DNA of 64,000 nucleotides from an uncultured cyanobacterium (GTDB lineage: Bacteria; Cyanobacteriota; Cyanobacteriia; Cyanobacteriales; CAWUOF01). Shown here piece by piece: positions 9,483 to 51,249 of this stretch (within the stretch, counting starts at the first letter, position 1; each line of letters opens with the position of its first letter). Below the pieces are notes generated by a model, which saw only the letters and a program-made list of their open reading frames with translations, had not been told where the DNA came from and did not search any database. The stretch lies in the NCBI GenBank assembly GCA_963744145.1, contig CAVUSO010000001.1:1806831-1870830 (forward strand). The letters are read 5' to 3'. Made by a program: the position numbers and the translations under genes.

Positions 9483-9740
9483 CTACTAACCAGTTGTTAT
9501 TGATGACATAAAAAAAATCGGGAACCCTGTTGATTAAAAAAAATAATTAGCATGGTAATTCCGTTTTTTCAACCCGAGGAAATGTATCAAATTTTAAGTA
9601 TTGTCCGACGGTCGAAGTGACAAAAATCACCTCTCTAGGGATAGATCGTCATATTGTTCTTCTGTTAGCGATCGCTGACTAGAACCATAAAATCGGACAT
9701 ACTCATCAGAATTACTGAGTTCAGAGTCAAGATAATTCAG

Positions 9741-24595: not shown

Positions 24596-25156
24596 TTAAT
24601 ATTCACCGACAAATTGAGGATGTACCCACAAAAATTCCCGTCGTTTGTTTTGGACTCGGATCAGTCCCCCAAAATCAGGATCTTTTTCTTTAAGTAAAAC
24701 ATGAATTTTTCTGAGGGTGGAACCTTCAGCACGAATCAGTTTACCTTGTGCTAATTCAGGAGGATCTGGTTTGGGTTGGGAATCTAGAGCCATATCGCTA
24801 CTTTTTAAAGCAAAGTCAAGACTCTTTTCACCTAAATCTAGTTCTTTTTCAAAGCTTTTGTAAGTTGCATCATCTAGTGCTAATTGGGTAACTGATGTTG
24901 CTAGGGGTAAAACCAAAGTTAGTGTTTTAGTCAAAGCTTTTAAGTAGGGAATTGCTCCCGTCACCCATTCACGATTTATTTCAAATTCATAAACACCCGT
25001 TTTAGTGTCTGGGTAATTTAGAAAAGGAAGTGGTTGACGAGAGTGTTCACACCAGAGGGTAAGTTTACACTTGATACTCATCCATTTGGGGCGATCGAAA
25101 AACCCTGGATCAATTAGTTTAATACTAAATAATCTTGGTCCAATCTTTAGCTTCAT
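24596..25156 (-). CDS. Hypothetical protein (186 aa), overlaps the ROCO gene stop by 32 bp (possible translational coupling)
   Basis: ORF only; no recognised motifs. Confidence 0.35.
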   Translation of the reverse strand: MKLKIGPRLFSIKLIDPGFFDRPKWMSIKCKLTLWCEHSRQPLPFLNYPDTKTGVYEFEINREWVTGAIPYLKALTKTLTLVLPLATSVTQLALDDATYKSFEKELDLGEKSLDFALKSSDMALDSQPKPDPPELAQGKLIRAEGSTLRKIHVLLKEKDPDFGGLIRVQNKRREFLWVHPQFVGEY

Positions 25157-28100: not shown

Positions 28101-28157
28101 CCGTTCAGCTTCCCGATATGCTTCATCCCGTGCCATCGTCAACCTCTGCTTGCTCAC
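25125..28157 (-). CDS. ROCO-family protein: about 15 leucine-rich repeats + Roc (Ras-of-complex GTPase) + COR domain
   Basis: 23-aa LRR units NNQLTEVPAALAALTQLQSLSLD repeated. Roc P-loop LILVGEGEVGKSCLLGAL, DFGGQ switch II, followed by a COR-like region. Confidence 0.85.
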   Translation of the reverse strand: MSKQRLTMARDEAYREAERRIEAALENGATELDLSDMGLTEVPEAIGQLTNLQKLNLGGKFWKDSKNQLTKVPEVIFSLTQLQWLDLDNNQLTEVPAALAALTQLQSLSLNNNQLTEVPAALAALTQLQSLSLDNNQLTEVPEVIFSLTQLQSLSLNKNQLTEVPAALAALTQLQSLSLDNNQLTEVPEVIFSLTQLRALYLDNNQLTEVPAALAALTQLRALYLDKNQLTKVPEVIFSLTQLQLLSLNKNQLTEVPAALAALTQLQWLDLSKNQLTEVPAALAALTQLQWLDLSKNQLTEVPAALAALTQLQWLDLSKNQLTEVPAALAALTQLRALDLSKNQLTEVPAALAALTQLQWLDLSNNQLTEVPAALAALTQLQRLYLSNNQLTEVPHSLIKLIKLTELKLDKNPLNPDFAAANEQGIEAVMQYLRAKAEGEVTLNEAKLILVGEGEVGKSCLLGALRGDQWIDGRPTTHGIEIKPVIVKTPDCNTEITLNGWDFGGQRVYRPTHQLFFSAPAVYLVVWKPREGPQQGFVKEWITLIKHREPDAKILVVATHGGPGQRQPDIDRQELFDLFGRETIIDFFHIDSKPHLENQSCSGIAELKETIAKIAITLPGVGRTVPQKWQQIQKLLEQSNKTHLPYKDVIAICEEQGLKGFAAELFVRVSHTLGYLIHYHYDPILQDIVILKPDWLAKAISFVLDDKTTREQNGLVNFDHLSNLWSYPPFANEKGYPKELHPVFLRLMERFDLSYKVVFDPNEPSNTSLIAQLVPDQRPELFPDWGELPAPGDRQQVQICRIVDDRGQFANAEGLFYQLIVRLHKYSLGREKYQDSIHWQRGLMLDNDYNGRALLEYIGTDIKITVRAAYPERFLSYLTEEVKWLIEHFWEGLRCNVMVSCVEPCGRKAPGQGLFEVEKLIESKKKNRHDYPCPITGCDEWQDIDKMLSNASTSKPLSPDINAEKVRNIVDEIKTTLSKESSAILSQIDAHYEGVIQTFIDEAKDWTKII
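26940..27965. repeat. Near-perfect tandem 69-bp repeats (about 15 units) encoding the LRR solenoid of the ROCO protein
   Basis: Direct reading: ggcacttccgtcaattggtt(a/t)ttg(g/t)(a/c)gaggt(c/a)aagcc(a/t)ttgcaactgtgtgag(a/g)gctgcgagcgccgct reiterated. The long + strand ORFs here are shadow frames. Confidence 0.9.
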
Positions 28158-28487: not shown

Positions 28488-29351
28488 TTAGGCATCTGCA
28501 TCAGGATCAATCCCCATTGCCCGTAGGCGTTCTGCAAGTCTTGCTGCTTTAATTTCAGCTTGTTCTGCCCGTTGATCCGCCTGGATAGCCCGTTGATCCG
28601 CTTGGATGGCCCGTTGATCCGCTTGGATGGCTCGCTGACGTTCCTGTTCAGCTTGCAGTTTTTCTAGCTCGGCTTTTTCATTGCCAATCAGTAATAGATT
28701 ACCTTCATGATCCCACCATCGCAACCAGATTTGCGTTTGGTTTTGATAAGTTCCTTGCCATAGCCCTAGTTCTACTCCTAATGGCTCAATCAAATAATGG
28801 TTACGTTCATTCGGCTCTAATTTTCGATAGGAAAAATCTACTAAGTGATACACTTCTAACTTGGCAGTTTTGATTTCATAGATGCCATAATAGGGAATCC
28901 GAATGATTTGTTCATACACCCAAAATTTCCCTGGTTTAATTTTCTTACCGTCGGGAGAAATGGCAAGTGGAGTTCGATCTCGTTCTTCTTCACCATTACC
29001 ACTAGCAAACTCTAAGGCAATCAATGGGGCTCTTAATTCCCGCCAAAACACATAGGAACGGCGGATCTCTCCATCAAGATTAGGTGGGACATTTGGCACA
29101 TAGAACCAATCGGGAGCTTCAGCACCTTTTTCGGGAGGATCAGTTTCCAGCCAGTAGATGCCACTATCTTGTCCAATACAATAATATCCATCTGGATGCA
29201 ATTGTTGTAAAATTTGCCCAATCGAGTCCGTCAGGATCAGACTCTGGGGATGTTCCTGAAAATTTTTCACAAATGTACCGTCTTCGTCTGGCAGTTGGGT
29301 ATGATCTGGGAAGGAGGAATGGCGATTTACTTGGGTTAATGTTTCTGTCAT
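28488..29351 (-). CDS. Uma2-family (DUF820) putative endonuclease with C-terminal coiled coil and AIQADQR x3 repeat; copy 1
   Basis: Uma2 signature blocks APDWFYVPNVPP..., PLIALEFASGNGEEERD..., GKFWVYEQIIRIPYYGIYEI... (PD-(D/E)xK-like), C-terminal ...LRAMGIDPD. Confidence 0.7.
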   Translation of the reverse strand: MTETLTQVNRHSSFPDHTQLPDEDGTFVKNFQEHPQSLILTDSIGQILQQLHPDGYYCIGQDSGIYWLETDPPEKGAEAPDWFYVPNVPPNLDGEIRRSYVFWRELRAPLIALEFASGNGEEERDRTPLAISPDGKKIKPGKFWVYEQIIRIPYYGIYEIKTAKLEVYHLVDFSYRKLEPNERNHYLIEPLGVELGLWQGTYQNQTQIWLRWWDHEGNLLLIGNEKAELEKLQAEQERQRAIQADQRAIQADQRAIQADQRAEQAEIKAARLAERLRAMGIDPDADA

Positions 29352-31006: not shown

Positions 31007-31849
31007 TTAGTCATCCGTATCAGGGTCAATCCCCATTGCCCGTAGACGTTCTGCAAGTCTTGCTGCTTTAATTTCAGCTTGTTCTGCCCGTTGATCCGAT
31101 TGGATTGCCCGTTGATCCGCCTGGATGGCTCGCTGACGTTCCTGTTCAGCTTGCAGTTTTTCTAGCTCGGCTTTTTCATTGCCAATCAGTAATAGATTAC
31201 CTTCATCATCCCACCATCGTAACCAGATTTGCGTTTGGTTTTGATAAGTCCCTTGCCATAGCCCTAGTTCTACTCCTAAGGGCTCAATCAAATAATGGTT
31301 ACGTTCATTCGGCTCTAGTTTTTGATAGGAAAAATCTACTAAGTGATACACTTCTAATTTGGCAGTTTTGATTTCATAGATGCCATAATAGGGAATCCGA
31401 ATAATTTGCTCATACACCCAAAATTTCCCTGGTTTGATCTTTTTACCGTCGGGAGAAATTGCCAGCGGAGTTCGATCTCGTTCTTCTTGACCATTACCAC
31501 TAGCAAACTCTAAGGCAATCAATGGGGCTCTTAATTCCCGCCAAAACACATAGGAACGGCGGATCTCTCCATCAAGATTAGGTGGGACATTTGGCACATA
31601 GAACCAATCGGGAGCTTCAGCACCTTTTTCGGGAGGATCAGTTTCCAGCCAGTAGATGCCACTATCTTGTCCAATACAATAATATCCATCTGGATGCAAT
31701 TGTTGTAAAATTTGCCCAATCGAGTCCGTCAGGATCAGACTCTGGGGATGTTCCTGAAAATTTTTCACAAATGTACCGTCTTCATCTGGCAGTTGGGTAT
31801 GATCTGGAAATGAGGAATGGCGATTTACTTGGGTTAATGTTTCTGTCAT
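31007..31849 (-). CDS. Uma2-family putative endonuclease, copy 2 (about 97% identical to copy 1; AIQ(A/S)DQR x2)
   Basis: Collinear with 28488..29351, differing by one heptad-repeat unit and a few substitutions. Confidence 0.7.
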   Translation of the reverse strand: MTETLTQVNRHSSFPDHTQLPDEDGTFVKNFQEHPQSLILTDSIGQILQQLHPDGYYCIGQDSGIYWLETDPPEKGAEAPDWFYVPNVPPNLDGEIRRSYVFWRELRAPLIALEFASGNGQEERDRTPLAISPDGKKIKPGKFWVYEQIIRIPYYGIYEIKTAKLEVYHLVDFSYQKLEPNERNHYLIEPLGVELGLWQGTYQNQTQIWLRWWDDEGNLLLIGNEKAELEKLQAEQERQRAIQADQRAIQSDQRAEQAEIKAARLAERLRAMGIDPDTDD

Positions 31850-32642: not shown

Positions 32643-32751
32643 ATGAGTGTATGCTAAGAATGTGGGAATATGTGAAAGTAGTCATCCGCATCAGGGTCAA
32701 TGGCTATTACTCACAGATATTCTGATGTTTAGAGCAACTCAAGGTATAATC

Positions 32752-33804
32752 ATGGATTGGAAACCAGAAACCACTTTAATTTTTGCCGTAGGAATTTTGA
32801 CATGGGAAAACTCGGATGTTTGGCCATCTTTTCCCGAAGCAATTCCAGGACGTTTTGATCAAAAATTGGTTGATTTTTTTCGCGCTCAAGGAGTTCCTGA
32901 AGCGCAAATTGTTTATTTACAAGATGCCAAGGCGACTCTGGCAGAAATTCAATCAACTCTACCAGAATTTTTAGCTAATCATAGTGATGAAGATTACCTA
33001 CTAATTTTTTATTTTGCTGGTCATGGAGATTGGGATAAAGAAACAGGTGAACATTATTTTATAAATTACGATGCTGATGGCGATGATCGAGATAATTATT
33101 GGTCAGTCACTTCGATTTTTGGTGATATTGAAGATAATTTTAAAGGTTCTAAGGCTTTGTTATTAGCTGATTGTTGCTTTTCAGGTGGTTTAATTGATCA
33201 GGTAAAGGAAGGAGATGATTTAGAGATTTCCTATGCTTGTATCAGTTCAGCTTATACCCATAACTTTTCGACCGGGAATTGGACTTTTACAGAAGCTTTG
33301 TATCAAGGATTGCTGGGAGATCCTGTAGTTGATTTAGACGGCGATCGCGAGATAACTTTATATGATTTTGCTCGTTATGCAGAATTAGAAATGGCTTTCA
33401 TTGAATCTCAGAAATCGATGTTTGTGACTACTAAAGATTTTGATCCTCAGATGGTGTTAGCAATTGTATCTGATGATATTCCAGCGATCGAAGGAAAGCG
33501 GGTCGAAGTAGAATATGAGAATGAGTGGTACAAAGCTAAGACTTTAGAAAGAGAAGGAGATCAAGTTTTAATCAAATATGTTGAGGATGATGAGGAACCA
33601 GCATGGGTAACCAATGATCAGATTCGTCCCTATCAACCAGAGCTGTTTGCTATTGGAGAAAAAGTAGAAGTTGAATCAGAAGAAGAATGGTGTTCAGCAA
33701 CGGTTTTAAAAGCTTGGTATGGGTTGCATTTGATTAGTTATGACGATTATGATGAGTCCTATAATGAATGGGTAGGAAGCGATCGCATTCGTCCTCAACA
33801 GTAG
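32752..33804 (+). CDS. Orthocaspase (peptidase C14 caspase-like domain) with two C-terminal Tudor/Agenet-like domains
   Basis: Catalytic dyad context YLLIFYFAGHGDWD (His) and KALLLADCCFSGGLID (Cys). Two repeats GKRVEVEYENEWYKAKTL...VLIKYVEDDEEPAWVTNDQIRP and GEKVEVESEEEWCSATVL...HLISYDDYDESYNEWVGSDRIRP. Likely start MDWKPE at 32752; the track start 32647 lies in repeat-derived sequence. Confidence 0.65.
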   Translation: MDWKPETTLIFAVGILTWENSDVWPSFPEAIPGRFDQKLVDFFRAQGVPEAQIVYLQDAKATLAEIQSTLPEFLANHSDEDYLLIFYFAGHGDWDKETGEHYFINYDADGDDRDNYWSVTSIFGDIEDNFKGSKALLLADCCFSGGLIDQVKEGDDLEISYACISSAYTHNFSTGNWTFTEALYQGLLGDPVVDLDGDREITLYDFARYAELEMAFIESQKSMFVTTKDFDPQMVLAIVSDDIPAIEGKRVEVEYENEWYKAKTLEREGDQVLIKYVEDDEEPAWVTNDQIRPYQPELFAIGEKVEVESEEEWCSATVLKAWYGLHLISYDDYDESYNEWVGSDRIRPQQ

Positions 33805-39065: not shown

Positions 39066-42000
39066 TCAAAATAAAAGTTGACTTTCTTGGGAGCGAGAGG
39101 GCAATGACCAGCTCTTGACTTTACCCAAGGTGACCGGCATCGGCAGGGCCACATCAATAGTAAAGCGGAAGACCTTACGCCCCCGACGACTATTATCTGG
39201 GTCGTAAAACTCGAGTTTGATATCCCAACAGTCACTGTTGATGCGACAGAAGGGGCTTTTTTCAACTTGAATGGTGTCAAGTTGACGACCCTCGGCGATC
39301 GCTAGAGCAAAGGTTAAAGCCGCTTGGAAGATATTGGTAGCAGCGAAATTAAGAGCGCGATCGCGGGAAGTCTGCCCTACATTGCGTAAATCATTGTAGA
39401 CTCGGTTAAGGAAGATGATCAGAGCTTGTCGAACCAAGGGTTCTTGGGCTGCATCCACTCGATTGGAAATGGCTGTCATTGCCGCGTTTACCAGAGTATT
39501 TACTTTCCATCCATACATTCCCCGCACATCATGGACTTTCACCACAGGCAAAACCTGACCTGAGAAGAGTTCCACCGTGCGGTTGGTGCGTCGGGCTGGT
39601 ATGCTAATTCGCTCTACAAATTCATCACTGGTTTCTGGTTCGAGTTGCCCCACCAACATCAGCAAAAACATCTCGTAGATATCTGATGAAAACGCTCCTG
39701 TTGGTTCAAGGGCATAAATAGTATCGCCATCAAGGCTCAAAGTCCAGATGAGGGAACGGCTCTCATCTGGGTGGCGATCGAGATGCTCGACCATCTGACG
39801 GACATCGTAGGGGTCAGGCGGAACCATTATCCCGTTAACTTCAGTCGGAGCCATCATTTGCTTGAAGGTATCGCAGCGGGCTTCATCTCCAAAGTCGTAG
39901 TTAATAGTCCCTAAAACGTAAACGTTGCCAGAGAAAGCCGTGCTAGCTTCGATCGTGCCTAGCTCTGCGGTAGTCTCAGCTACTGTAAGGGATATTTCAG
40001 TTGGTGTGGCAGATGCGGTGAGTGGCATGGCTAAACTGGTGGTTATAGCAGTGCTGATCCTTGTCTGGGCAGCAATAGCGCTAGGAACAGCATATCCACC
40101 ACGCTCTGTACGGGTGACTTGGTCACCTGCAAAGGAAATGGTGACAGATGGTTGCCCAAACAGCACCTTCATCGTGCCCGGTATATTGACAAAACCGCGC
40201 ATACAGCGTTCGGATTCTTCTACAATCTTTGGATCGCAAGGAATCGCAGTATTGAGCAATGCCGTTCGGATCGCTTCAGCATCGACGGGTTTACCCTCTT
40301 GTAGCTGCAAACTCATCATTAGTGCAGAGATTCCGGTCACGATCGGAGCAGCTCCACTGGTGCCCGTTCTGAGCCTCGGTTTCTCAGTTGCTAATTGTGC
40401 GCCCCAAATGTCGTCACCAGGAGCCATAATCCCTTCTTCAGTATAATTGCCTCCCCAATTATTGTAGTGGGCTGGTGGGTTGCCTAGATCCATTGCTCCT
40501 ACAGGAAGAGTTCCTGGCAATACACCAGGTAAACACCAGTATTCACCCAAACCGTTACCCGCAGGCCCGACAATCAAAATATTGTTATCTAGGCACTTCT
40601 GTACAGCTTGGGTAAACAACTCTTCTCCTTGACAAGTTTGGGTGGGGCGACATATTCCACAATGAATGATATTTGCCCCCAAATCCAGGGCCAGTTCAAA
40701 AGCACGGGCTAGATTAAGGGGAGAGGCAAGTTCCTCCGCCATCTCTATGCTGTCAAGTGGTAGATTAATTAGGCGACAGTTAGGAGCAATACCAGCAGCA
40801 GGGGTATTTTCTTGACCCACAATGATACTGGTGACATGGCAAGTATGGTCATCAATTTTAAGACGTGCGATCAGAGGTTCCGGAAAACTAGCCCTGAGTT
40901 CTGCTTCTTTCTCCTGCTTGGTGCGATCGCTGTCTTCAATAGCTCGGAAGGTGGCGTACTGTTCTGAAGAAATTGGCCCTGGAGTCTCGTGCCAGTAAGG
41001 AAAGACTTTAGAAATTGCAGCTCCCTGGAAACAGGACAACGAGTGGTCGGGGTTGCCTTCGAGAACCACAATAGTGATGCGAGGGTCGCCGAGAGTTTGG
41101 TTGCGGAGTTCAGCCAGTCCCGGGATGCGATCGTCAAGGTCGTGGGGATGAAGTGCCATAGAAACATCTTGTGCTGTCGCCTCAACTGTGCTCGTTGAAA
41201 CGGTTGCAGATGAACTCAAGGATGCGAGCAAATCTGACTCTTCGTCAACCGAAACACCAGTCTGCGTTGCTTCAGTTATTAGTTGTGCTGATGTAGAAAC
41301 ATCTACAGATCCAGCCCCATTCACCACAACCTCCGTGGTATAGTCATTCTCCTCAAGTTCGTAGGATGCCACTTCACTAGCCGAAACTTCTACTGACCTA
41401 AGCTTGTTCCAGCCAGCTACTGTAGCTGAACTCGCATCACTTGTACCCACAGCATGGTTTGGTAACGACCCCAACATGAACTCACCCACAGCCGACTCTT
41501 TCACATAATCCAGACCTGCTAATTGCCCAAAACCGTCGCTATCTCCACCTCCCAACGCGCAGGGAGCAAGACCCATATTAGTAGACACTAAATAGAGATT
41601 TTGCTGTAGCACTCCAACATCTTTCAACACCAACGAATAGGCTACAGAGCGATACTTGCGGAACAGCCTGCCAAACCTTGCCGTAATCACAAGAAGAACT
41701 TGTGGTTGGGGTTTGTAATAAATATAAGGTTCTAGAGCAAGGACATCCTGGGATGCAGCAATCTGCTCCAATTGATGATTTATTGGATCGTAGTGATACA
41801 ATCCTGTGTCTAGTCCTTGACAAAGTCGCACCACTGGATAAATTTCTAGCTCATACATTGCTCCGCTACCAGGATAAGGCCGACTACCTAGCTCACCATA
41901 GTCAATATCCGCGTCAAAGCCGAGTATTTTCCGCCAATTTTCACCAAGCCACTCCTCCTCTCGAAGAATATTTTTGACACGGGCAGTGCGATAAAGAAGT

Positions 42001-42932
42001 TCACCGAGTTGTTCTATCGTGATAGGATGTGCATCGTCGTGTTCTCGAATCGATTTCCGTCTCTCAATCACTTCTGTGAGTGTAGCATCGTTACATTGCA
42101 ATGCCTCCAAGTTTGGACGCGGTAGAGACACAACTTTGTCGCTCATGGGTGGCTTTACCACCGGAAAATCAGACCACTGTTCGATGTTGATATCTCCTAC
42201 TGGATAGTCATGGCGGCCTAATCTGCTCCGGCTGTGGAACAACAGGTTGTGAAAGTCCCAAAGTTGGAGCGAGGGGGTTTCAGGGTCAGCCGTCAGAAAT
42301 CCTGATGCCCACAGCAATTTGAGAAACTGATAGGCTGTTTCTGGACCTAGGTAGGGTGGTGGTGTCAGTGTGCCCAGAGATTGGGGTTGGGCAAGTTGAG
42401 CCAGAATAGCACTTGCCCGCCAGTCGAGAAGTTTAACCCGAAACTTTGAGAGGGGGGACTCCAGCACCATGGTGCCGTCGTGGGGATGCTGATAGGCAAA
42501 GCGGGAGAGGGTGATATTTGTTTGTGTCCAGTAGGGTTCGGTCAGATTTAGCTCGGCAGATTCCACCATCGGGATCGCTAGTGCTAGGGGCAACACAGCA
42601 TAACTCAACCAACCCCGCTGATCCAATTGTTGTAGCATTAGGGCGAACTGTTCCCCTGCTATCCGACCATCAAGTTCGACTAACCCTTGCACAAGTGATT
42701 CATTGGTAGAGTTGCCTACCTTGAGAAGATCAAGAGCCATACTGATTCCAGGTGTTGTTGCTAGGGTGAGCAAATCATTGGGATTGGATTCTGCTGATGA
42801 ACGTAGAATATAGTGGTCTTCGGTACTTGTCACTTGGACAAAAGGATTGAGGAAAATATTGAAGGGATGGTTGCTCATAGCAAATGATAATGGGAAACAA
42901 TGATTAGGCAAGTGAGTCAATGGCAATAGCAA
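39066..42932 (-). CDS. patG: PatG-like cyanobactin maturation protein: N-terminal SagB-type FMN dehydrogenase (azoline oxidase), subtilisin-like (S8) protease/macrocyclase domain, and the PatA/G C-terminal DUF
   Basis: SRPYPGSGAMYELEIYPVV (SagB/nitroreductase motif). S8 blocks ITIVVLEGNPD, ILIVGPAGNG, GTSGAAPIVTGISALM. C-terminal ~230 aa is about 60% identical to the C-terminus of the PatA-like protein (…LNFAATNIFQAALTF…EKSPFCRINSDCWDIKLEFYDPDN…). Confidence 0.8.
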   Translation of the reverse strand: MLLPLTHLPNHCFPLSFAMSNHPFNIFLNPFVQVTSTEDHYILRSSAESNPNDLLTLATTPGISMALDLLKVGNSTNESLVQGLVELDGRIAGEQFALMLQQLDQRGWLSYAVLPLALAIPMVESAELNLTEPYWTQTNITLSRFAYQHPHDGTMVLESPLSKFRVKLLDWRASAILAQLAQPQSLGTLTPPPYLGPETAYQFLKLLWASGFLTADPETPSLQLWDFHNLLFHSRSRLGRHDYPVGDINIEQWSDFPVVKPPMSDKVVSLPRPNLEALQCNDATLTEVIERRKSIREHDDAHPITIEQLGELLYRTARVKNILREEEWLGENWRKILGFDADIDYGELGSRPYPGSGAMYELEIYPVVRLCQGLDTGLYHYDPINHQLEQIAASQDVLALEPYIYYKPQPQVLLVITARFGRLFRKYRSVAYSLVLKDVGVLQQNLYLVSTNMGLAPCALGGGDSDGFGQLAGLDYVKESAVGEFMLGSLPNHAVGTSDASSATVAGWNKLRSVEVSASEVASYELEENDYTTEVVVNGAGSVDVSTSAQLITEATQTGVSVDEESDLLASLSSSATVSTSTVEATAQDVSMALHPHDLDDRIPGLAELRNQTLGDPRITIVVLEGNPDHSLSCFQGAAISKVFPYWHETPGPISSEQYATFRAIEDSDRTKQEKEAELRASFPEPLIARLKIDDHTCHVTSIIVGQENTPAAGIAPNCRLINLPLDSIEMAEELASPLNLARAFELALDLGANIIHCGICRPTQTCQGEELFTQAVQKCLDNNILIVGPAGNGLGEYWCLPGVLPGTLPVGAMDLGNPPAHYNNWGGNYTEEGIMAPGDDIWGAQLATEKPRLRTGTSGAAPIVTGISALMMSLQLQEGKPVDAEAIRTALLNTAIPCDPKIVEESERCMRGFVNIPGTMKVLFGQPSVTISFAGDQVTRTERGGYAVPSAIAAQTRISTAITTSLAMPLTASATPTEISLTVAETTAELGTIEASTAFSGNVYVLGTINYDFGDEARCDTFKQMMAPTEVNGIMVPPDPYDVRQMVEHLDRHPDESRSLIWTLSLDGDTIYALEPTGAFSSDIYEMFLLMLVGQLEPETSDEFVERISIPARRTNRTVELFSGQVLPVVKVHDVRGMYGWKVNTLVNAAMTAISNRVDAAQEPLVRQALIIFLNRVYNDLRNVGQTSRDRALNFAATNIFQAALTFALAIAEGRQLDTIQVEKSPFCRINSDCWDIKLEFYDPDNSRRGRKVFRFTIDVALPMPVTLGKVKSWSLPSRSQESQLLF

Positions 42933-43439
42933 GTGGTGAAATCATCAGTAAGGGATAGAAATTAAATAACTAGCTTGCTTGTAGTAACACATCAGAGCGA
43001 AGACAGCGCTTACTACGAACCAAACCGTCAAGTTATTTATTTTTCATTCCTAATGGCATCTTATATGTTGTTAAAAATTCGATCCCGTATAACTTTAAAA
43101 GGTTAGGTTTTTTTGGACGGTTCAACAATTGTTTTATCCGCTAACTATAACAAAAGATTTATTATGTTCGATCGCCCTCAACATCGCAATTAGGCTCAAT
43201 CCCACACAAACCTTCTATTCCAAGAACAGCTTCTTCAAATAAAGGAATCGGAAAACTAGGTTCTACATCAAAAGCATCTCGGTGAGCCCGCATAAACCGA
43301 AGACGGTGTTCTCGTAGATAATTATGTAAAAATCCAGAATTTATCGTCATAATCGTATTTCCTCATCCAACACTTTTTAAGTTATCTGCTGCAAATTATA
43401 TGCACCCATTCAGAATAGGTTTTGAGTTTGGATGCACTT

Positions 43440-45233
43440 TCATTTTATCTTGTTCACAAAATTATTTATTTCGTAGTACATTTTTACTCTCTGAATTGAA
43501 TCAATATAAAACTCAGATTCAGGAATACCTAAATACAGCCTCTTAAAGACTCGATTCCGGTAATAAGCATGGACTTTATTCACCATCTCATTGCCCAAAT
43601 ATTCAACAGCACTATTGGGAGATTTGAAATTAGTGAAATAAAGGACATCACTATCGTTCTCATTGCTAATACCGATTTGAACAACTCTACTCTCATAGAA
43701 AAGAGGAAGTGCTCTAGCAGGTAATCTCGAAGTTAAATATGCTTGTACATCCAGGCGATCGAGATCGGCAGGATAAAAAGTAGGATAGACTTCTACCGCC
43801 GCTTTATTGTTAAAGAAAAAGTCAAACCCTACTAATAAAGTCCCATTGATAATTAATTTCTCCCAGTCTCGCTTTTCTCCGCAAAGTGCGATGGCAATTG
43901 CTATCTTTTCTGGATAATCCCTGATGCTAAGAAATAACTTTATTCGTGAACGTTTTAGTTCTGGACGAACATCGACACCGACAGACACCATATCTACTTT
44001 ATGAGGGTCTATACCTGTAGCTAAAAACTGCTGAAGTAAACTGCGATCAAGCTGAATTTCTGGACTTCCTTCTATCAAACGAGAGAAAGAGAGGAAATCT
44101 TCAATATCAAGCAATTTCACTACTGGATCGGGAACACCAACTTCAGAGAGATAAGTAAAACGAGCTGGATAAAAACAATCTTTTTCAATATTGCAGCAAC
44201 AGGCAATACAACCTCCTTGATCTTTTCTCTGCTTACCGATAAATTCTGCAAATAAATTTAATGGATAAGAATTTTCAATATTAAAAACTTGTTTGTGTTC
44301 TTCAAAATAACGCAAATTTTCTTCATGGCGATTCAATCCGAAACTGGACTTCACACCAGAAAAATGCTTTTGGGGTTCAACTTTTATTCTGGCAGGTTTG
44401 ACCGCTTTAATATCAGCAAAAAATAAGGGTAAATTGGGGTGAAGGAAATTTGCAGAAGCTAGACGTAGAGCTAGTGATGGCATCTTAACTGTTTGGTTTT
44501 CATCATATTCAATAGATTGGAAACCAGCCTCATGAACAAGCTCAACTAAGTTCTTAAGAGGAATAACATGGCTGTTTTGGAGTTCTTGCTGGTTGATTTC
44601 ATCCATTGCTTTTTGCTCTAGTGGAGAAAGGGGTGGCTCTTTAACAAAGAGACCCGTAATATATAGAGTTCCCCCCGGATTTAGCACGCGTCTGGCTTCA
44701 GCAAGGACTTGGGATACCCGATTAGAATACTTGATGCTGTCGTTGAAAAACACTACATCAAATACTTCATTGGGAAAAGGTGGGAAATGAAAATCACCTA
44801 CTTGGACCCGCACCCGATCAACCAAGTTAGCTTGGGCAATCCGAATTTGGGCTTCTGCCGCTTCCACCTCAGAAATTGTTAGACCCTCAATCCGGGTTCC
44901 TGGAAACAACTGAGCAATATGAATCGCCGGAATTCCTGCTCCACAACCAGCATCAAATATATAGTTTCCGGGCTTTATCCCCATGCGATCTGCTAGACTA
45001 AGGTTGTGTGATCTAGCTACTGCATCAGGAACCATCCGACTAAAGTTGATGGAGTGCTTATTATAAAAAGTGCGAACTTCTTCGACTTCGGGCGTAGGGT
45101 TAGGTTGAATAGGAGCACTTGGACTGATGTAGTTATTTTGCATGATGTTCGATAGGGATAACTGGCGGAAAGAAAAGTCTGGATGACTTGATGGTGAGCT
45201 TAAGTGCATCTTCAACAGTAAAGACAAGACCAA
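43440..45233 (-). CDS. Class I SAM-dependent methyltransferase fused to a C-terminal domain occupying the PatF (cyanobactin prenyltransferase family) position; putative bifunctional MT-PT
   Basis: MTase motif I IFDAGCGAGIPAIHIA, post-I acidic residue, motif II/III region. ~350-aa C-terminal domain of PatF-like size immediately downstream of the precursor gene. The PT call is positional/inferential. Confidence 0.5.
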   Translation of the reverse strand: MVLSLLLKMHLSSPSSHPDFSFRQLSLSNIMQNNYISPSAPIQPNPTPEVEEVRTFYNKHSINFSRMVPDAVARSHNLSLADRMGIKPGNYIFDAGCGAGIPAIHIAQLFPGTRIEGLTISEVEAAEAQIRIAQANLVDRVRVQVGDFHFPPFPNEVFDVVFFNDSIKYSNRVSQVLAEARRVLNPGGTLYITGLFVKEPPLSPLEQKAMDEINQQELQNSHVIPLKNLVELVHEAGFQSIEYDENQTVKMPSLALRLASANFLHPNLPLFFADIKAVKPARIKVEPQKHFSGVKSSFGLNRHEENLRYFEEHKQVFNIENSYPLNLFAEFIGKQRKDQGGCIACCCNIEKDCFYPARFTYLSEVGVPDPVVKLLDIEDFLSFSRLIEGSPEIQLDRSLLQQFLATGIDPHKVDMVSVGVDVRPELKRSRIKLFLSIRDYPEKIAIAIALCGEKRDWEKLIINGTLLVGFDFFFNNKAAVEVYPTFYPADLDRLDVQAYLTSRLPARALPLFYESRVVQIGISNENDSDVLYFTNFKSPNSAVEYLGNEMVNKVHAYYRNRVFKRLYLGIPESEFYIDSIQRVKMYYEINNFVNKIK

Positions 45234-45403
45234 AGAAGGAACATAGGACTTTAAAAAAGTTTTTTATCTAAGCCTCCTTGGCCTTGTCTGTAGTCTCAAG
45301 CCTATCAACGTTTAATCCCGATATTTAGGGCAGTAAACTGCAATTTTACCGGATTTGGAAGGCTTAAGATGCAATTTGCTGGCCATTCGCAAATTGGAAG
45401 AAT

Positions 45404-45646
45404 TTAGGCATCACCATCGAAGGAACAGATGCATATGATAGCTGCATCTACACCATCGAAGGAACAAATGGTTGGAACGAAAGCTGCATCTACACCATCG
45501 AAGGAACAGATGCATATCATAGCTGCATCTACACCAGCACCACCGAGAGCTTCCTCAGATAGTTCAGCCAAGTGGCTGGGGAGTTGACCATTGGTAATGC
45601 GGAGTACGGGTTTGGCTTGTTGGGGCAGGATATTTTTCTTATTCAT
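45404..45646 (-). CDS. patE: Cyanobactin precursor peptide (PatE-like), 80 aa: conserved leader + three core cassettes
   Basis: Leader MNKKNILPQQAKPVLRITNGQLPSHLAELSEEALGGA is PatE-like. The rest is GVDAA-MICIC-SFDG-VDAA-FVPTIC-SFDG-VDAA-IICIC-SFDGDA. The DNA shows three cassette repeats at 45420-45540. The track ORF (to 45745) has a spurious N-terminal extension. Confidence 0.8.
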   Translation of the reverse strand: MNKKNILPQQAKPVLRITNGQLPSHLAELSEEALGGAGVDAAMICICSFDGVDAAFVPTICSFDGVDAAIICICSFDGDA

Positions 45647-45780
45647 GGAACTAATCCTTATTTTGTTGCTTGGTTTGTTGACCCGTTTAGGTGGGTTAAT
45701 CCTCTCCTTCATTGAGAAGAAGGCTGATGAAGCAACATCTGGCACGTAGAGAAGCCCGTTGCCTGCAAACTTTAAAAGAC

Positions 45781-48129
45781 TTAGAATGGTATATTCATAG
45801 GATTCATTTCTGCCTCAGCCAGGGGTAAAATTTGCCACCCTAACTGCACCGGAACATCATAAAGCCGCCCGGGAGCAAACCGCGACCATAAACCTCTCAT
45901 TCCGGGTATAATCACTTTGACGACATTCAAGCCAATGTCCGGTCGCGTTTGGTCTAATACCAAAGTTTCTAGCCCTACTGTTTGAGCTATCCCTACACAA
46001 GTCATCACATCTGTATAGATATCATCACTCCAACGTTTCGGGTAATCATTGGCAGTCTTCATCGGCTGTGTTTGATCGGGAAGTAGACAAGGATGACTAG
46101 ATCGAGTCACTTCTAAAAACCAGTCTTTCGACTCATCTTTGAGTTGCTCGTCAGGAATTTTGTCAAGTTCCAGTCCAACCTGACTCACCTCAGTCAAACT
46201 GCGAAGAATAGCAATCTTCGGGTCTAGATGCGCCCCAAAACCGACGATCACCCGCTCTGAACTTCCTACTGTGCGATACGATATACCCGCAAACGCCGGA
46301 ATTCCCAGGTCAGCAGTTAAATCCAGCACCCAAAGTTCTCGGTTCCGCTCCTGGTAGAACTGCTGCAACTGGAGAAAATAAGGCTCATCAAAGCTGCTGA
46401 GATCCACCCCTGGACGTCTAAGGCGGTTGTACCACCACAGGGCTACGCTATCACGCTCCACCAGTTCCATAAACCCTTGCAATATTGCCTCTTCAAGGGT
46501 ATTGCCCGCCGCGTTACCGTTGGAATCTGCCTTACAGAAACGATTGGTTTCTGGGATGGGATAGTGGTAGTAGCAAAAGGCAGTGGGAAGGTATTTGTGT
46601 GTCTGTGCAGTCAATGACCATACTGGTGTCCAGTCAATGGCTTGACTGGCATCAAACCGATGGGGAATCCAGCGATAGGCTGCTTCTGTCCCTTGAGCGT
46701 TTAGGGCTTCTCGATTAGCATACTGCCCATCGCTAAAGTACAAACACTGCTCCGGATGAATTGCCAAGTCTCCTAGTTCTGCTAGAGTTGCCCGTTTACG
46801 GGGTTCATCTCCCTGAAAGATCCCTGAATAGCGTTCCACTGCCTCACATAACCCACTTGCCCGCGATTGGCTATCGGTTTTGCCCTTGCCCGAACTCTTG
46901 TGGCGGAGGGTATTACGTAGTCCCCGCAGGGATATAGCACTACCAAAACTATGCCCTGCCCGGTAAGTATGAACCAATTGGTTGGCTGGATCGGTGATTC
47001 GCACTAGTTCTGTCACTACCCCTGTAATCGGGCTGATCAGGTGTTGGTATTTCTGAACAGTCTGTTCCGGGGTAACAGCGCGGTGACCACCATCAGCCGT
47101 GAAGTGCTTGGGGCGCGATTCTAGCTGTAGCGGTTCAAATCCCCGTCGTTGCAGGATACCTGAGTCGCCACAGGTCGGACATTGAGGTCGCTTAATCAAG
47201 ATATGACTTTTCAAGTCCAGAATCGTCTGGTTAAAGGTGATAATCTTGCCGTCTAGGGTAGGGAAGAGCGCAGTTCCTGGTGCAGTTTTATTGGCATAGT
47301 GCTTGACAATCCACTTGGCAATTTCAGTTGCTGCAAACTGTAACCCCGTTTGTAAGGTTGAAGGTAGTGTTGCCCGTGCTGTGGGGAGGCAACCTACCAC
47401 CCGCACTTTTTGGCCATTGCGCTCTTGTTGGGCTTGTTTTTGCCGCAAGACCGACGACTCAACTTCTCGATTGCCCCGCAATCGCTGGGCAAGACAGTCC
47501 CAACACCCCGTCTTTCCAGGAACAAACACCGGACCTAACCAGAGAACACTGCCCACTGGCTTGATTAGTAGCCAAGCTTGTTGGTGTTGCAGAGCCTGTT
47601 GGTTAATTGCCCCTAGTTCGGGCTGTAAATAATCATCAGTCAAAACTATGTTAATTACTGCGGAGGAACCCGCATCTGTGGGTTTTTGTACCGCAATACC
47701 CATCTCCTGCAACGCATTGGTGAGAGCAGTAGCAGTTACTTCATTGATGTTCTCCCCCACTGTTGTCAGCGTGACCGGCTGATGTAGTCCCTGTGCTGCA
47801 ACAGCGGGTGAAATCCCTAACTCGCTCCAAAATGCCGCCACTTCTGGGGATAAAATCGGGGCAGCCTCGGTGAGGTATCCCTTCTCTGCCAGGCGATTGA
47901 GCACATAGTCAATATATTCTGGTGGAACTTCCCCATCCAGCTTTTCGACAATCTGCATCTGGGTATATTGCCCATCCAACAGAGGCAATATTTGGCAGTA
48001 GAGTTGCCCTGTGAGGACATAGTTAGCCTGTTCGCCAAGTAGATAAACTTGCTTTGGCTCAATGATCTCGACATGAAAGTGGGGCTTAATTTGCAGCAGT
48101 GTGGTAGATTGCATGGAGCGAACAGTCAT
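45781..48129 (-). CDS. patD: PatD-like cyanobactin heterocyclase (E1-like docking domain + YcaO cyclodehydratase), 782 aa
   Basis: Size and domain order as PatD/TruD. Cys-x-x-Cys pairs (CWDC, CPTC) in the N-terminal zinc-tetrathiolate region. YcaO-type C-terminal domain. Located directly upstream of the precursor. Confidence 0.8.
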   Translation of the reverse strand: MTVRSMQSTTLLQIKPHFHVEIIEPKQVYLLGEQANYVLTGQLYCQILPLLDGQYTQMQIVEKLDGEVPPEYIDYVLNRLAEKGYLTEAAPILSPEVAAFWSELGISPAVAAQGLHQPVTLTTVGENINEVTATALTNALQEMGIAVQKPTDAGSSAVINIVLTDDYLQPELGAINQQALQHQQAWLLIKPVGSVLWLGPVFVPGKTGCWDCLAQRLRGNREVESSVLRQKQAQQERNGQKVRVVGCLPTARATLPSTLQTGLQFAATEIAKWIVKHYANKTAPGTALFPTLDGKIITFNQTILDLKSHILIKRPQCPTCGDSGILQRRGFEPLQLESRPKHFTADGGHRAVTPEQTVQKYQHLISPITGVVTELVRITDPANQLVHTYRAGHSFGSAISLRGLRNTLRHKSSGKGKTDSQSRASGLCEAVERYSGIFQGDEPRKRATLAELGDLAIHPEQCLYFSDGQYANREALNAQGTEAAYRWIPHRFDASQAIDWTPVWSLTAQTHKYLPTAFCYYHYPIPETNRFCKADSNGNAAGNTLEEAILQGFMELVERDSVALWWYNRLRRPGVDLSSFDEPYFLQLQQFYQERNRELWVLDLTADLGIPAFAGISYRTVGSSERVIVGFGAHLDPKIAILRSLTEVSQVGLELDKIPDEQLKDESKDWFLEVTRSSHPCLLPDQTQPMKTANDYPKRWSDDIYTDVMTCVGIAQTVGLETLVLDQTRPDIGLNVVKVIIPGMRGLWSRFAPGRLYDVPVQLGWQILPLAEAEMNPMNIPF

Positions 48130-48163
48130 TGATTAAGTGGACAAAAACCAAACATCCCATTAA

Positions 48164-48763
48164 TTAAGCCCAGATGCGACCCCGTCGGAAGTCCTTGGGC
48201 TGCTGTTCAGGGGTTTTGGCAGATCTTTTGGCATAATCCCACCAATAGGAATAATCTTGCAGCCCGGTCTGGGAAGTGGGCACATAAGACTTTTTCGGTT
48301 CAGGGGTTGAGGAGACTTCCGAGGTTGTTGGTGTTGGTGTTGGTGTTTTCTTAGCCATCGTTTTTTTAGTTTCCTTGGGTGTTTCGGGTGTTTGGGAGGT
48401 TGGCGGTAGCTGGAGATTAACCACTCCCTCTAGCTTGAGGTAGTCGATCCGGTGTACTCCATCTCCCGACCCTTTAACAGTGGTCAGGGTTAGGGTATGT
48501 TGCCCAGCACTGAGGGCTGGTAAGGGAATCTGGGTTTGGGTTGGCTTGCCTGACCCGACGCCGACCAGTTCGGTTACTAGTTCACCATCAACCCAGAGGG
48601 TGTCAACTTCAGAGCCAAAAAAGTTATAAAAGAGTGTAAGTTCGCCTGTACTGTAACTTTGGGTTAGGGTGAATTGAATATTTAGTTTGTCGGTGGAAAA
48701 AAGCTGTTTTCCTTTGTGCTGTGGTTTCTTCTTGCGACCTGGAACCAAGAGCAACGATGGCAT
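48164..48763 (-). CDS. Hypothetical protein (199 aa) in the PatC position of the cluster, Thr/Pro-rich linker
   Basis: Positional only. TPETPKETKKTMAKKTPTPTPTTSEVSSTPEPKK low-complexity segment. Confidence 0.35.
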   Translation of the reverse strand: MPSLLLVPGRKKKPQHKGKQLFSTDKLNIQFTLTQSYSTGELTLFYNFFGSEVDTLWVDGELVTELVGVGSGKPTQTQIPLPALSAGQHTLTLTTVKGSGDGVHRIDYLKLEGVVNLQLPPTSQTPETPKETKKTMAKKTPTPTPTTSEVSSTPEPKKSYVPTSQTGLQDYSYWWDYAKRSAKTPEQQPKDFRRGRIWA

Positions 48764-48939
48764 ATGTGGATGGTTAATGGGTTCTGGATCTGACCCAACA
48801 ATGTAGGTAAATTCCTTTTGCCAGCCACCTACCTGCGAAAACTCTTGCCCTCCTTTACCAGGATGACCAATTTGCCATAGAGTTTCAGTTTGCTGAGGTA
48901 TGGTGATGAGCGACTTATCAGTGGCTCTTTAGTGGCTTA

Positions 48940-49191
48940 TTAATAAAATCCTCCCATACCCGCAAAGCCGCCCCAGCCCTGGCTGGATGTACTCTGGCTA
49001 GTACTAGAGTGCATCACCTGGTTGAAACTGCGGTTGGCAAAGGCTGGAGGATCGTTATAGTTAGCGGCATGGAGTAGATCCATCCGAATACCTACCAAAT
49101 CATCAGGACTACCATTTTCCACATCCACACACAACGCTGGTTGGATGAAATGGGGACGTTTAACGGGAGGAGACAATATAGGAAGTCGCAT
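48940..49191 (-). CDS. Hypothetical small protein (83 aa) in the PatB position
   Basis: Positional only. Confidence 0.3.
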   Translation of the reverse strand: MRLPILSPPVKRPHFIQPALCVDVENGSPDDLVGIRMDLLHAANYNDPPAFANRSFNQVMHSSTSQSTSSQGWGGFAGMGGFY

Positions 49192-49296
49192 GGTTGAGGA
49201 TTCTCCGTATGAATATTATGGATAGGATCAACAAACTTAGATGTCTGGACGAGAGTGCATTTGGTTTTTGCACTCTCATGCAAATTGTATTTCCTT

Positions 49297-51249
49297 TTAA
49301 TACGGTGAAGACCAGCTGCGAACTTCGCCCAAGGTAACTGGAATCAAATCGCTCACATCAATGGTGAAGCGGAAAATCTTCTTGGCGCGGCGGTTGTTTT
49401 CCGGGTCGAAGAACTTCAGTTTCACATCCCAACAGTCGCTATCCACACGACAGAAAGGACTCTTCTCCACGGTGATGCTGTCAAGTTCCATGCCCACTGC
49501 TACCGCTTGACTGAAGGTTTGTGCGGCTTGGAAAGCGTTGGTAACTGCGAAGTTGAGAGCGCGATCTTGAGATGTGGTTCCCAAGTTGCGGAGGTCGTAG
49601 TAGATGCGGTTGAGGAAACCATCCAAAGTCCTGCGAATCGTTTCTTCGTCAGCATCCCCAGTTTCCGCTTGAACTGCTGCCAATGCCGCACTCACCAGGT
49701 TGTTGACTTTCCATCCATAGATACCGCGGGTACTTTGGGGTTCAATGACTGGAACAATTTGACCGGAGTAGAGCTTGACCGTGCGTTTGGTTAATATACC
49801 TGGTATGCTGACGCGCTCAACGTATTCGGTATTAGATTCAGGTTGGATTTGACCTGATAGCAGTTCGTGAAGGGCTCGGTAGGATTCAGCACCGAAGGGA
49901 CCTGTGGGGTCGATCGCGTATACTGGAGTTAATTCAATGTTGAGTGTCCAAATTAGCGATCGCGCCTCCGAAATATTATCGTTCAGGTAGTCCACCATCT
50001 GGCGAGCATCGTAGGGGTTAGCCGGGACCATCACCCCTCCCCCCAAGTCAAACGGTGGCATCAGTTGCTTAAATGAGTCCCTCCGGGCTTCAGTTCCGAA
50101 GTCATAGCCGAGGGTGCCCAGGGAATAGACCAGCTGACCGAGATCGGCAAGTTCGCTGGGGGCTTGGCTGGCGGTGACAGAGTTAGCAGTGAAGTTGGGC
50201 ATCGTTGGTGGTTGGGTGATAGGGTTAGGAAAGGATTGAATCAATTCTTGCAAGTTGGGGGTGTTGCTGGGGACAGCTCCAACCGCTCCGGGCGTGGCAG
50301 CGATCGCTTCACTGGTGTTGGTTAAGCCACCAGTACAACCGCAACCTCCCGCTTCTACTGATGAGGCATCTACTGATGCAAATTCCTCAGCCATTTTTCC
50401 TCCTTTTAATAACGTTATGGCACCAGGGATGTTTAGTTTGCCTGCCAGACACCGTTTAGTGTCTGGCAAGTCTGGGTCGTCGCAGGGTAAGGCACTCTGC
50501 AACAAAATTTGCCGAATTTTGTGGGAGTCTGGGGTTTCTCCCTCCTCCTGCTGCATACTCAGCAAGACCGCTGCTACACCTGAAACGATAGGAGTAGCGA
50601 AGCTCGTACCACTCAGGCGCTGGGTGCCGCCCCCAGGTTTAGCCCCCAGGATATCCTCCCCTGGGGCAAGAATACCTTGTTCTTGGTAGGTTTCGCCCCA
50701 GTTGCTAAAATCCAGGGGTTTACCATTAGCATCCATAGCTCCCACCGCTAGTACATCGGGCAAGGCAGCGGGCACATGTAAGCAATCACAACCATTGTTG
50801 CCAGCGGCAGCGACCAGCAAAACATTGTTCTTTTGGCACAAACGAATGGCATTCTGAAGCCAGCCATCGGATTCGCCAAAATCAGTCAGTTGACCCCCAC
50901 TGATGTTGATCACATGGGCTCCAGCATTGATCGCTTGCTCTATTCCTCGCGCCAAATCTAGCTGAGAGGTCTTGCGCCGATCGTCGGCAAAAACCGGTAC
51001 AATTATTCCCTTACATTGGGGCGCAATCCCCTGGACTGGACTCCCCGGTTGCCCAAATATAATGCTGGCAACGTGGGTTCCGTGGGTGGACATACTGCCA
51101 TCGCTCTTTGCTTTTTCTTGCACCAATGTGGGTAGATACTTAATGTCTGCGCCTTGGAAGCAAGCATGAGTCTGATCGACAGGACCATCCAAAACTGCTA
51201 TACAAATACTGCTATCTCCCTGAGAGATGCTACGCAATTTATCTAGCAT
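49297..51249 (-). CDS. patA: PatA-like cyanobactin N-terminal protease: subtilisin (S8) domain + C-terminal PatA/G DUF
   Basis: ICIAVLDGPVDQTHACF (Asp), STHGTHVASIIFG (His), AAAGNNG (oxyanion Asn), LSGTSFATPIVSG (Ser). C-terminal domain homologous to the PatG-like C-terminus. Confidence 0.85.
   Translation of the reverse strand: MLDKLRSISQGDSSICIAVLDGPVDQTHACFQGADIKYLPTLVQEKAKSDGSMSTHGTHVASIIFGQPGSPVQGIAPQCKGIIVPVFADDRRKTSQLDLARGIEQAINAGAHVINISGGQLTDFGESDGWLQNAIRLCQKNNVLLVAAAGNNGCDCLHVPAALPDVLAVGAMDANGKPLDFSNWGETYQEQGILAPGEDILGAKPGGGTQRLSGTSFATPIVSGVAAVLLSMQQEEGETPDSHKIRQILLQSALPCDDPDLPDTKRCLAGKLNIPGAITLLKGGKMAEEFASVDASSVEAGGCGCTGGLTNTSEAIAATPGAVGAVPSNTPNLQELIQSFPNPITQPPTMPNFTANSVTASQAPSELADLGQLVYSLGTLGYDFGTEARRDSFKQLMPPFDLGGGVMVPANPYDARQMVDYLNDNISEARSLIWTLNIELTPVYAIDPTGPFGAESYRALHELLSGQIQPESNTEYVERVSIPGILTKRTVKLYSGQIVPVIEPQSTRGIYGWKVNNLVSAALAAVQAETGDADEETIRRTLDGFLNRIYYDLRNLGTTSQDRALNFAVTNAFQAAQTFSQAVAVGMELDSITVEKSPFCRVDSDCWDVKLKFFDPENNRRAKKIFRFTIDVSDLIPVTLGEVRSWSSPY

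Follow-up and report, generated by a model that had tools for sequence, protein, structure and literature searches.

Positions 39066-51249 of the 64,000-nucleotide stretch of cyanobacterial contig CAVUSO010000001.1 analysed here (the window) hold a cyanobactin gene cluster on the minus strand. We assign it, with good confidence, to the age/vir type, as a functional cluster that probably makes short linear peptides rather than macrocycles. The cluster is intact and of an already described type, that of the linear, prenylated and methylated cyanobactins. What is new are its core peptides, the loss of its second F gene (F2) and a family-wide active-site signature in the G protease; the cluster type itself is known.

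According to the listing of open reading frames (ORFs), the segment consists of seven collinear minus-strand ORFs in the order patA, patB, patC, patD, patE, MT-PT and patG, where MT-PT denotes a methyltransferase-prenyltransferase fusion (lengths in amino acids, aa; DUF, domain of unknown function):

49297-51249, minus strand: patA homologue, 650 aa; N-terminal S8 protease and PatG_D/PatG_C (DUF)
48940-49191, minus strand: patB homologue, 83 aa, with no assigned function; TIGR04220, 122 bits (cut-off 55)
48164-48763, minus strand: patC homologue, 199 aa; TIGR04447, 57 bits (cut-off 30), at residues 166-199
45781-48129, minus strand: patD homologue, 782-aa ORF; E1-like/leader-binding domain fused to a YcaO cyclodehydratase
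45404-45646, minus strand: patE-type precursor, 80 aa; leader with LAELSEEAL and three GVDAA-core-SFDG cassettes
43440-45143, minus strand: MT-PT, 567 aa from ATG; homologue of AgeMTPT
39066-42878, minus strand: patG homologue, 1270 aa from ATG; oxidase, S8 protease and DUF

We compared the cluster with nine loci: a Logan contig from run ERR11571142, which is 100% identical to the window over 6,910 nucleotides (nt) (L001), Crocosphaera XPORK-15E (L002), Microcoleus F4-D5 (L003), the age cluster of Microcystis PCC 9432 (L004), two Nostoc loci (L007, L010), Leptolyngbya PCC 7376 (L008), Planktothricoides SR001 (L009) and a metagenome-assembled genome (L012). The order A-B-C-D-E-MTPT-F-G is found in all of them except the divergent Leptolyngbya locus. 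Relative to the Crocosphaera, Microcoleus and Microcystis loci, sequence identity is 78-84% for A, 80-81% for D, 74-78% for MT-PT and 71-74% for G, and B is 84% identical to its counterparts in the latter two. At the nucleotide level, homology to the Microcoleus locus (about 80%) extends from 17 nt upstream of the start of A to about 40 nt short of the stop of G and is broken only across F2.

All seven proteins exceed the cut-offs of curated hidden Markov models (HMMs) by a wide margin. A is matched by the PatA/PatG protease model TIGR03895 (944 bits, cut-off 421), by Peptidase_S8 (135 bits) and by PatG_D and PatG_C; it keeps the Asp of the catalytic triad (IAVLDGPVD) and is predicted to cut after each G-V-D-A-A site of the precursor. 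The PatC domain of C occupies just the last 34 residues. The stretch before it, an N-terminal extension of some 130-165 aa, found no match in Pfam or NCBIfam, and it aligns with the C proteins of the Crocosphaera and Microcoleus loci, whereas Microcystis AgeC (75 aa) lacks it. D is matched by YcaO (332 bits), TIGR03882 (TOMM leader-binding, 135 bits) and a winged-helix model (126 bits), and its best match in the PDB is LynD (1471 bits), with TruD at 1375 bits. Its start is likely the ATG at 48114, which would give 777 aa: relatives align from residue 6 onwards and the gene call on the identical Logan contig is of that length.

The 567 aa of MT-PT are counted from an ATG, the 597-aa ORF beginning at an upstream TTG. 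The protein comprises a class I S-adenosylmethionine (SAM) methyltransferase (residues ∼50-245) and a PatF/LynF-type prenyltransferase (∼274-560), recognized by Methyltransf_11 (63 bits), DUF5838 (348 bits) and TIGR04445 (299 bits); its C-terminal half matches F-type prenyltransferases in the PDB with up to 205 bits. For G, the 1270 aa are likewise counted from an ATG, in a 1288-aa ORF that begins at an upstream TTG. It consists of a ThcOx/SagB flavin mononucleotide (FMN) oxidase (∼12-472), an S8 protease with a capping-helix insert (∼573-909) and a DUF (∼975-1260). The HMM matches are to ThcOx (109 bits), TIGR03605 (150 bits), TIGR03895 (762 bits) and PatG_D/C, and in the PDB the protein matches the PatG macrocyclase domain with 517-534 bits (4AKS 517), CyaGox with 332 bits and the PatG DUF (4UVQ) with 420 bits.

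The features that define cyanobactin clusters (PMC4663559, section 4) are present: the S8 proteases A and G, each with a C-terminal DUF, a PatE-type precursor with a leader and recognition-flanked cores, and homologues of patB and patC. Two optional features, associated with azole-bearing products, occur as well, namely the D heterocyclase and a thiazoline oxidase.

Within the cyanobactins, clusters with a bimodular MT-PT have been described to yield peptides that are linear, are prenylated at the N-terminus and end in a methylated, thiazole-bound C-terminus (PMC4663559), and AgeMTPT carries out both N-terminal prenylation and C-terminal methyl esterification (PMC10496146). The linear age/vir family, known since its description in 2013, has a biochemically characterized MT-PT (PMC4663559, PMC10496146). 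Because the MT-PT fusion defines the age/vir type, we assign the cluster to it and not to the patellamide/trunkamide type. A single 567-aa ORF holds both domains here. The stand-alone F without methyltransferase fusion that is typical of patellamide/trunkamide clusters is absent, since the sole complete F-family domain is the fused one and the stand-alone copy is cut off. All three precursor cores are short, end in Cys and have recognizable cleavage sites, as in age/vir clusters. The synteny of the age/vir type, with an intact stand-alone F following MT-PT, is retained in its order only, F2 being a 62-aa remnant.

MT-PT is 78% identical over its full length to the protein of Microcystis PCC 9432, 76% to that of O. 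nigro-viridis (P0008) and 42% to that of Leptolyngbya. Of 211 columns invariant across 21 homologues it departs at 5 and keeps 206, within the range of 0-12 departures obtained when each family member is left out in turn. By this measure of its sequence, MT-PT is intact.

These results largely sustain an earlier note, written from the letters of this DNA, which had proposed a cyanobactin cluster in patA-to-G order on the minus strand. Curated HMMs, PDB matches and the nine homologous loci bear out the proposal, together with its PatE-like leader, YcaO heterocyclase, methyltransferase-PatF fusion and oxidase-protease-DUF G protein. It could have failed on three points, but D does resemble YcaO and PatD, A and G do resemble PatA and PatG, and the leader is of the PatE family. 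The patellamide/trunkamide paradigm it invoked is not the closest one, the MT-PT fusion placing the cluster in the linear age/vir family. Its 'complete' cluster has its seven genes, yet the stand-alone F beside MT-PT is a stub, and of the two small ORFs at the B and C positions only B is really small. Its view that something other than a patellamide-type macrocycle is encoded here fits the MT-PT, the G active site and the precursor tail.

Three side observations concern the relatives. The close ones are all cyanobacterial except for the metagenome-assembled genome (GCA_050262755.1, JBLNEP010000059.1), which carries a complete age-type cluster and for whose MT-PT (P0024) NCBI gives the label 'MAG: Actinomycetota bacterium'; this is probably a mis-binned cyanobacterial contig. 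The cores of its precursor, WAT/WTT, lack Cys. In the Leptolyngbya locus, a 730-aa Laminin_G_3 protein is encoded between a small gene after A and MT-PT.

The precursor, which exceeds the cut-off of TIGR03678 (71.5 bits, cut-off 39.6) and matches DUF5837 with 89 bits, reads MNKKNILPQQAKPVLRITNGQLPSHLAELSEEALGGAGVDAA-MICIC-SFDGVDAA-FVPTIC-SFDGVDAA-IICIC-SFDGDA. Its cassette repeat was also detected by the repeat search, as direct repeat D1, and no second precursor gene was found in the window. We set the core boundaries by analogy with AgeE, whose cassettes read ...DAS-FFPC-SYDG..., -FFPVC- and -FFPC-SYDDGDA, and with VirE, which has four copies of FIC and the tail SVDGDA. The translated cores are:

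45506-45520, minus strand: core 1, MICIC, precursor residues 43-47
45464-45481, minus strand: core 2, FVPTIC, precursor residues 56-61
45425-45439, minus strand: core 3, IICIC, precursor residues 70-74

None of the three occurs in any of 119 other precursor homologues examined, and otherwise they are found only on the identical Logan contig; the predicted core peptides are thus new relative to the precursors compared. The nearest cores are IICMC (Microcoleus B9-D4), IVPCIC (Microcoleus F4-D5), FITIC (Crocosphaera XPORK-15E) and FVPCC, which is present three times in the precursor of Planktothricoides SR001, a locus whose F2 is whole. On these two grounds that strain (PMC5460452) was ruled out as the source of the DNA. 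The ...DGDA tail, or a near variant, recurs among the precursors of MT-PT loci.

The S8 domain of G was aligned to the PatG macrocyclase structures 4AKS and 4AKT, and the codons of the three positions listed below were checked. In PatG the catalytic triad is Asp548-His618-Ser783 (PMC4979651), to which the following positions correspond:

41058-41060, minus strand: Glu607 of G (codon GAA), at the position of PatG Asp548
40845-40847, minus strand: His678 of G, kept
40356-40358, minus strand: Ser841 of G, kept

Compared with the canonical triad and capping helices of patellamide-type proteases, the helices, His678 and Ser841 are present, but Asp is replaced by Glu607. The same Glu, in the motif V[VI][LI]EGNPD, occurs in seven of seven close MT-PT relatives, AgeG included (L002, L003, L004, L007, L009, L010 and L012), and hence in eight of eight with the window; the divergent G protein of Leptolyngbya PCC 7376 has Gly. 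Position 548 is Asp in all A or G proteases carrying the motif that do not belong to MT-PT loci, and in 136 of 137 related S8 representatives covering the site (one per 50%-identity cluster). This survey is based on the fetched loci and the representative library, as a homology search with the protease domain of G turned up fragments for the most part and failed to recover the full-length G proteins; the signature is an empirical one, derived in this analysis. A further 17 positions are invariant in six Glu-type sequences and occupied by other residues in all nine Asp-type, macrocyclase-like ones, among them A619T beside the catalytic His, M784G beside the catalytic Ser, and F747Y (PatG numbering). 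Since Glu is fixed in the close MT-PT clusters, the departure from the canonical triad does not mark this copy of G as damaged.

An orphan G fragment was found in Coleofasciculus sp. E2-BRE-01 (L011, 5006-6952). It encodes 648 aa of oxidase and protease with Asp548 in an age-like motif, ILDGNPD. On its 14.8-kb contig no A, D or MT-PT gene was called and no LAELSEE-type precursor was found, so that it looks like a cluster remnant.

The main structural difference from the relatives lies between MT-PT and G, where F2 is reduced to its beginning:

43162-43350, minus strand: F2 remnant (DUF5838), 62 aa of ∼322-326 aa, ending in two stop codons
42941-43169: AT-rich stretch, 229 nt, 32% GC, in place of ∼852 nt (F2 body and spacer) of the Microcoleus locus

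The remnant matches only positions 1-48 of the 289 in the PatF family model DUF5838 and is 70-83% identical to residues 1-61/65 of F2 in the Crocosphaera, Microcoleus and Microcystis loci. Homology to the Microcoleus locus ends at 43170 and restarts at 42940; the intervening DNA is unrelated to it and is not repeated elsewhere in the window. A tblastn search of the window yielded no other pieces of F2. The number of stand-alone F genes beside MT-PT is 0 in the Leptolyngbya locus, 1 in L002, L003, L004 and L009, and 2 in L007, L010 and L012. Given this spread of copy numbers, F2 looks like an accessory and not a defining feature of the age/vir type, and its loss need not disable the pathway.

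We propose the following pathway, whose steps are taken over by homology except for the dual activity of AgeMTPT (PMC10496146). D would bind the 80-aa precursor through the leader motif LAELSEEAL and convert Cys to thiazoline with consumption of adenosine triphosphate (ATP), and the FMN oxidase domain of G would oxidize thiazoline to thiazole (Thz). Protease A would then cleave after each GVDAA, leaving a free N-terminal amine on each core, and the S8 domain of G would cleave before each SFDG by hydrolysis, leaving a free C-terminal thiazole carboxylate. Finally, MT-PT would prenylate the N-terminus with dimethylallyl pyrophosphate (DMAPP) and methyl-esterify the C-terminus with SAM, as documented for AgeMTPT. 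The predicted products (OMe, methyl ester) are prenyl-Met-Ile-Thz-Ile-Thz-OMe (calculated [M+H]+ 624.271) from core 1, prenyl-Phe-Val-Pro-Thr-Ile-Thz-OMe (741.400) from core 2 and prenyl-Ile-Ile-Thz-Ile-Thz-OMe (606.314) from core 3.

The aeruginosamides of Limnoraphis CCNP1324 were considered as products and ruled out, as their Pro-Pro-Cys-derived ends do not fit the cores (PMC7551963). Nor do the predicted peptides coincide with the product predicted for Planktothricoides (PMC5460452).

Several points weigh against a functional cluster with linear products. The cores have 5-6 residues as compared to 3-5 in the described age/vir members (PMC4663559), and the two cores with two Cys each are assumed to carry an internal thiazole. 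The Thr of FVPTIC might or might not be heterocyclized. LynD, the best structural match of D, is not known to act on residues other than Cys. Linearity, prenylation and methylation are predictions from the genes, and the truncation of F2 could alter the prenylation pattern or reduce the yield. Scans for promoters and terminators gave no signal beyond that of shuffled sequences, so the operon structure is assumed from strand and spacing. Lastly, G resembles the PatG macrocyclase in its S8 domain (63-64% identity), where the capping-helix insert (PYWHE...), the His and the Ser are retained.

Some of these points could be taken as signs of a decaying or silent cluster, in which the truncated F2 and the non-canonical G triad reflect pseudogenization and no mature product is formed. 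F2 has indeed shrunk to 62 aa, the site of the missing part being taken by 229 nt of unrelated AT-rich sequence. G is without the Asp that is canonical for S8 triads, and promoter and terminator signals are no better than chance. Yet the other seven genes are full-length, free of frameshifts and align end to end with their relatives at 71-84% identity, MT-PT keeps 206 of its 211 invariant columns, and the three cassettes are intact and mutually different, whereas decay has to account for a Glu that is fixed in all eight close MT-PT clusters, that of the aeruginosamide producer included, and for an F gene whose copy number varies between 0 and 2 in any case. We therefore consider decay to be improbable.

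Nor is there much of a case for a macrocyclic, patellamide/trunkamide-like cluster, in which G would act as a transamidating macrocyclase joining the ends of each 5-6-residue core while MT-PT decorates side chains or acts in some other way: besides the resemblance of the S8 domains, it has in its favour that the cores end in Cys followed by (S)FDG, like macrocyclase substrates, and that PatG is reported to form rings of 5-22 residues (PMC4979651), but the MT-PT fusion is a marker of the linear family (PMC4663559), AgeMTPT acts on free N- and C-termini (PMC10496146), which macrocycles do not have, G has Glu for Asp548, Thr for Ala619 and Gly for Met784 of PatG, just like AgeG of the linear-peptide producer, and the ...DGDA tail of the precursor is common to other MT-PT loci, all of which makes this reading very unlikely.

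For the age/vir cluster with linear products that we prefer, the alignments suggest a further, speculative idea, namely that the remodelled active site of G, with Glu for Asp548, A619T, M784G and F747Y in all the close MT-PT clusters compared, turns a transamidating macrocyclase into a plain hydrolase and is the switch between cyclic and linear cyanobactins. We put this forward tentatively and regard it as doubtful. If true, the locus would be a natural test case, in which a remodelled G faces bis-azole cores of 5-6 residues that are long enough to cyclize. The set of loci gives a clean sequence signature by which G enzymes of linear pathways can be told from macrocyclases.

As for its significance, the locus would add three new linear thiazole peptides, two being bis-thiazoles, to a family with reported cytotoxic members (PMC7551963). 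Its MT-PT offers a further, ready-to-use form of the 'peptide protectase' AgeMTPT, an enzyme already employed in biocatalysis (PMC10496146).

The segment, a compact block from A to G, is higher in GC than the DNA around it, as the earlier note had seen by eye: in 1-kb windows, mean GC is 0.471 within it and 0.401 outside (Mann-Whitney p = 8e-8). This does not extend to the stretch of MT-PT and F, since the composition is a mosaic, with A, B, C, D and G at 0.49-0.52 and both domains of MT-PT as well as the F2 stub at the host level of 0.37-0.41. The Crocosphaera, Microcoleus and Microcystis loci show the same split, with flanks at 0.34-0.44. Because it recurs in all three relatives measured, the mosaic is a property of the cluster family. 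The horizontal acquisition that had been proposed from GC thus holds in so far as the pattern is consistent with lateral spread, which for cyanobactin clusters is reflected by the title of a paper that PMC7551963 cites, and falls away as evidence of a recent arrival in this genome. No transposase, integrase or mobile-element genes were found beside the cluster, and the repeat search detected no direct or inverted repeats bracketing it. From the point of view of genome biology the locus holds nothing unusual: it is a further example of a laterally spread cyanobactin cassette, here in the chromosome of a filamentous-type cyanobacterium.

Elsewhere in the window, a tRNA-Leu(UAA) gene (9141-9483, plus strand) is split by a 256-nt group I intron (RF00028, 85.5 bits at 9165-9406); ARAGORN missed it with default settings and found it once introns were allowed. 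A group I intron in trnL(UAA) is a classic feature of cyanobacteria and plastids, and because of this intron and the relatives of the cluster we take the window to be of cyanobacterial origin. A 1010-aa LRR-Roc-COR protein (ROCO-type GTPase) is encoded at 25125-28157 on the minus strand, and its gene accounts for a local GC maximum (0.51) at 27-28 kb. Two Uma2-family putative endonuclease genes and a gene for a caspase-domain/Agenet-domain protein (28488-29351, minus strand; 31007-31849, minus strand; 32647-33804, plus strand) lie upstream of a gene for a 1490-aa protein with only a weak match to UvrD_C. This region could be a defence-type neighbourhood.

Among the known systems, the age cluster of Microcystis PCC 9432 shares with the cluster described here the gene order, the precursor grammar including the ...DGDA tail, the Glu at the Asp548 position of G and the GC mosaic. 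Its proteins are 78% (MT-PT), 83% (A), 80% (D), 72% (G) and 84% (B) identical to those of the window. The two differ in their cores, which are FFPC and FFPVC in AgeE as opposed to MICIC, FVPTIC and IICIC, and in their recognition sites, G(M/A)DAS and SYDG in age compared with GVDAA and SFDG here. In addition, the age cluster has a whole F2 (324 aa) in place of the 62-aa stub, and a C protein of 75 aa instead of 199 aa.

The vir cluster of Oscillatoria nigro-viridis PCC 7112 encodes the tripeptide FIC four times in VirE, whereas the precursor of the window has three distinct cores. The Microcoleus F4-D5 locus, a near relative of vir, has C in the long form, as here. Its precursor carries IVPCIC three times and its F2 is intact (326 aa), unlike that of the window.

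With the pat and tru clusters of Prochloron, the cluster has in common the families of A, B, C, D, E and G and the leader motif; the protease domains of PatG and G are 63-64% identical and TruD matches D with 1375 bits. These clusters differ in having a stand-alone F without methyltransferase fusion. PatG, with its canonical Asp548-His618-Ser783, forms macrocycles of 7-8 residues (PMC4979651, PMC4663559), whereas G of the window has Glu and its products are predicted to be linear.

Linear azole peptides with protected ends are also the products of the muscoride (mus) pathway. The methyltransferase domain recurs in MusH (P0043, 46% identity over 42% of the query), and MusD matches D with 993 bits. 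In mus, however, the methyltransferase is fused to PatA/G DUF domains and not to a prenyltransferase as here, and it is the YcaO enzyme MusD, not a G protease, that takes off the C-terminal follower, by way of an acyl phosphate (PMC10885120).

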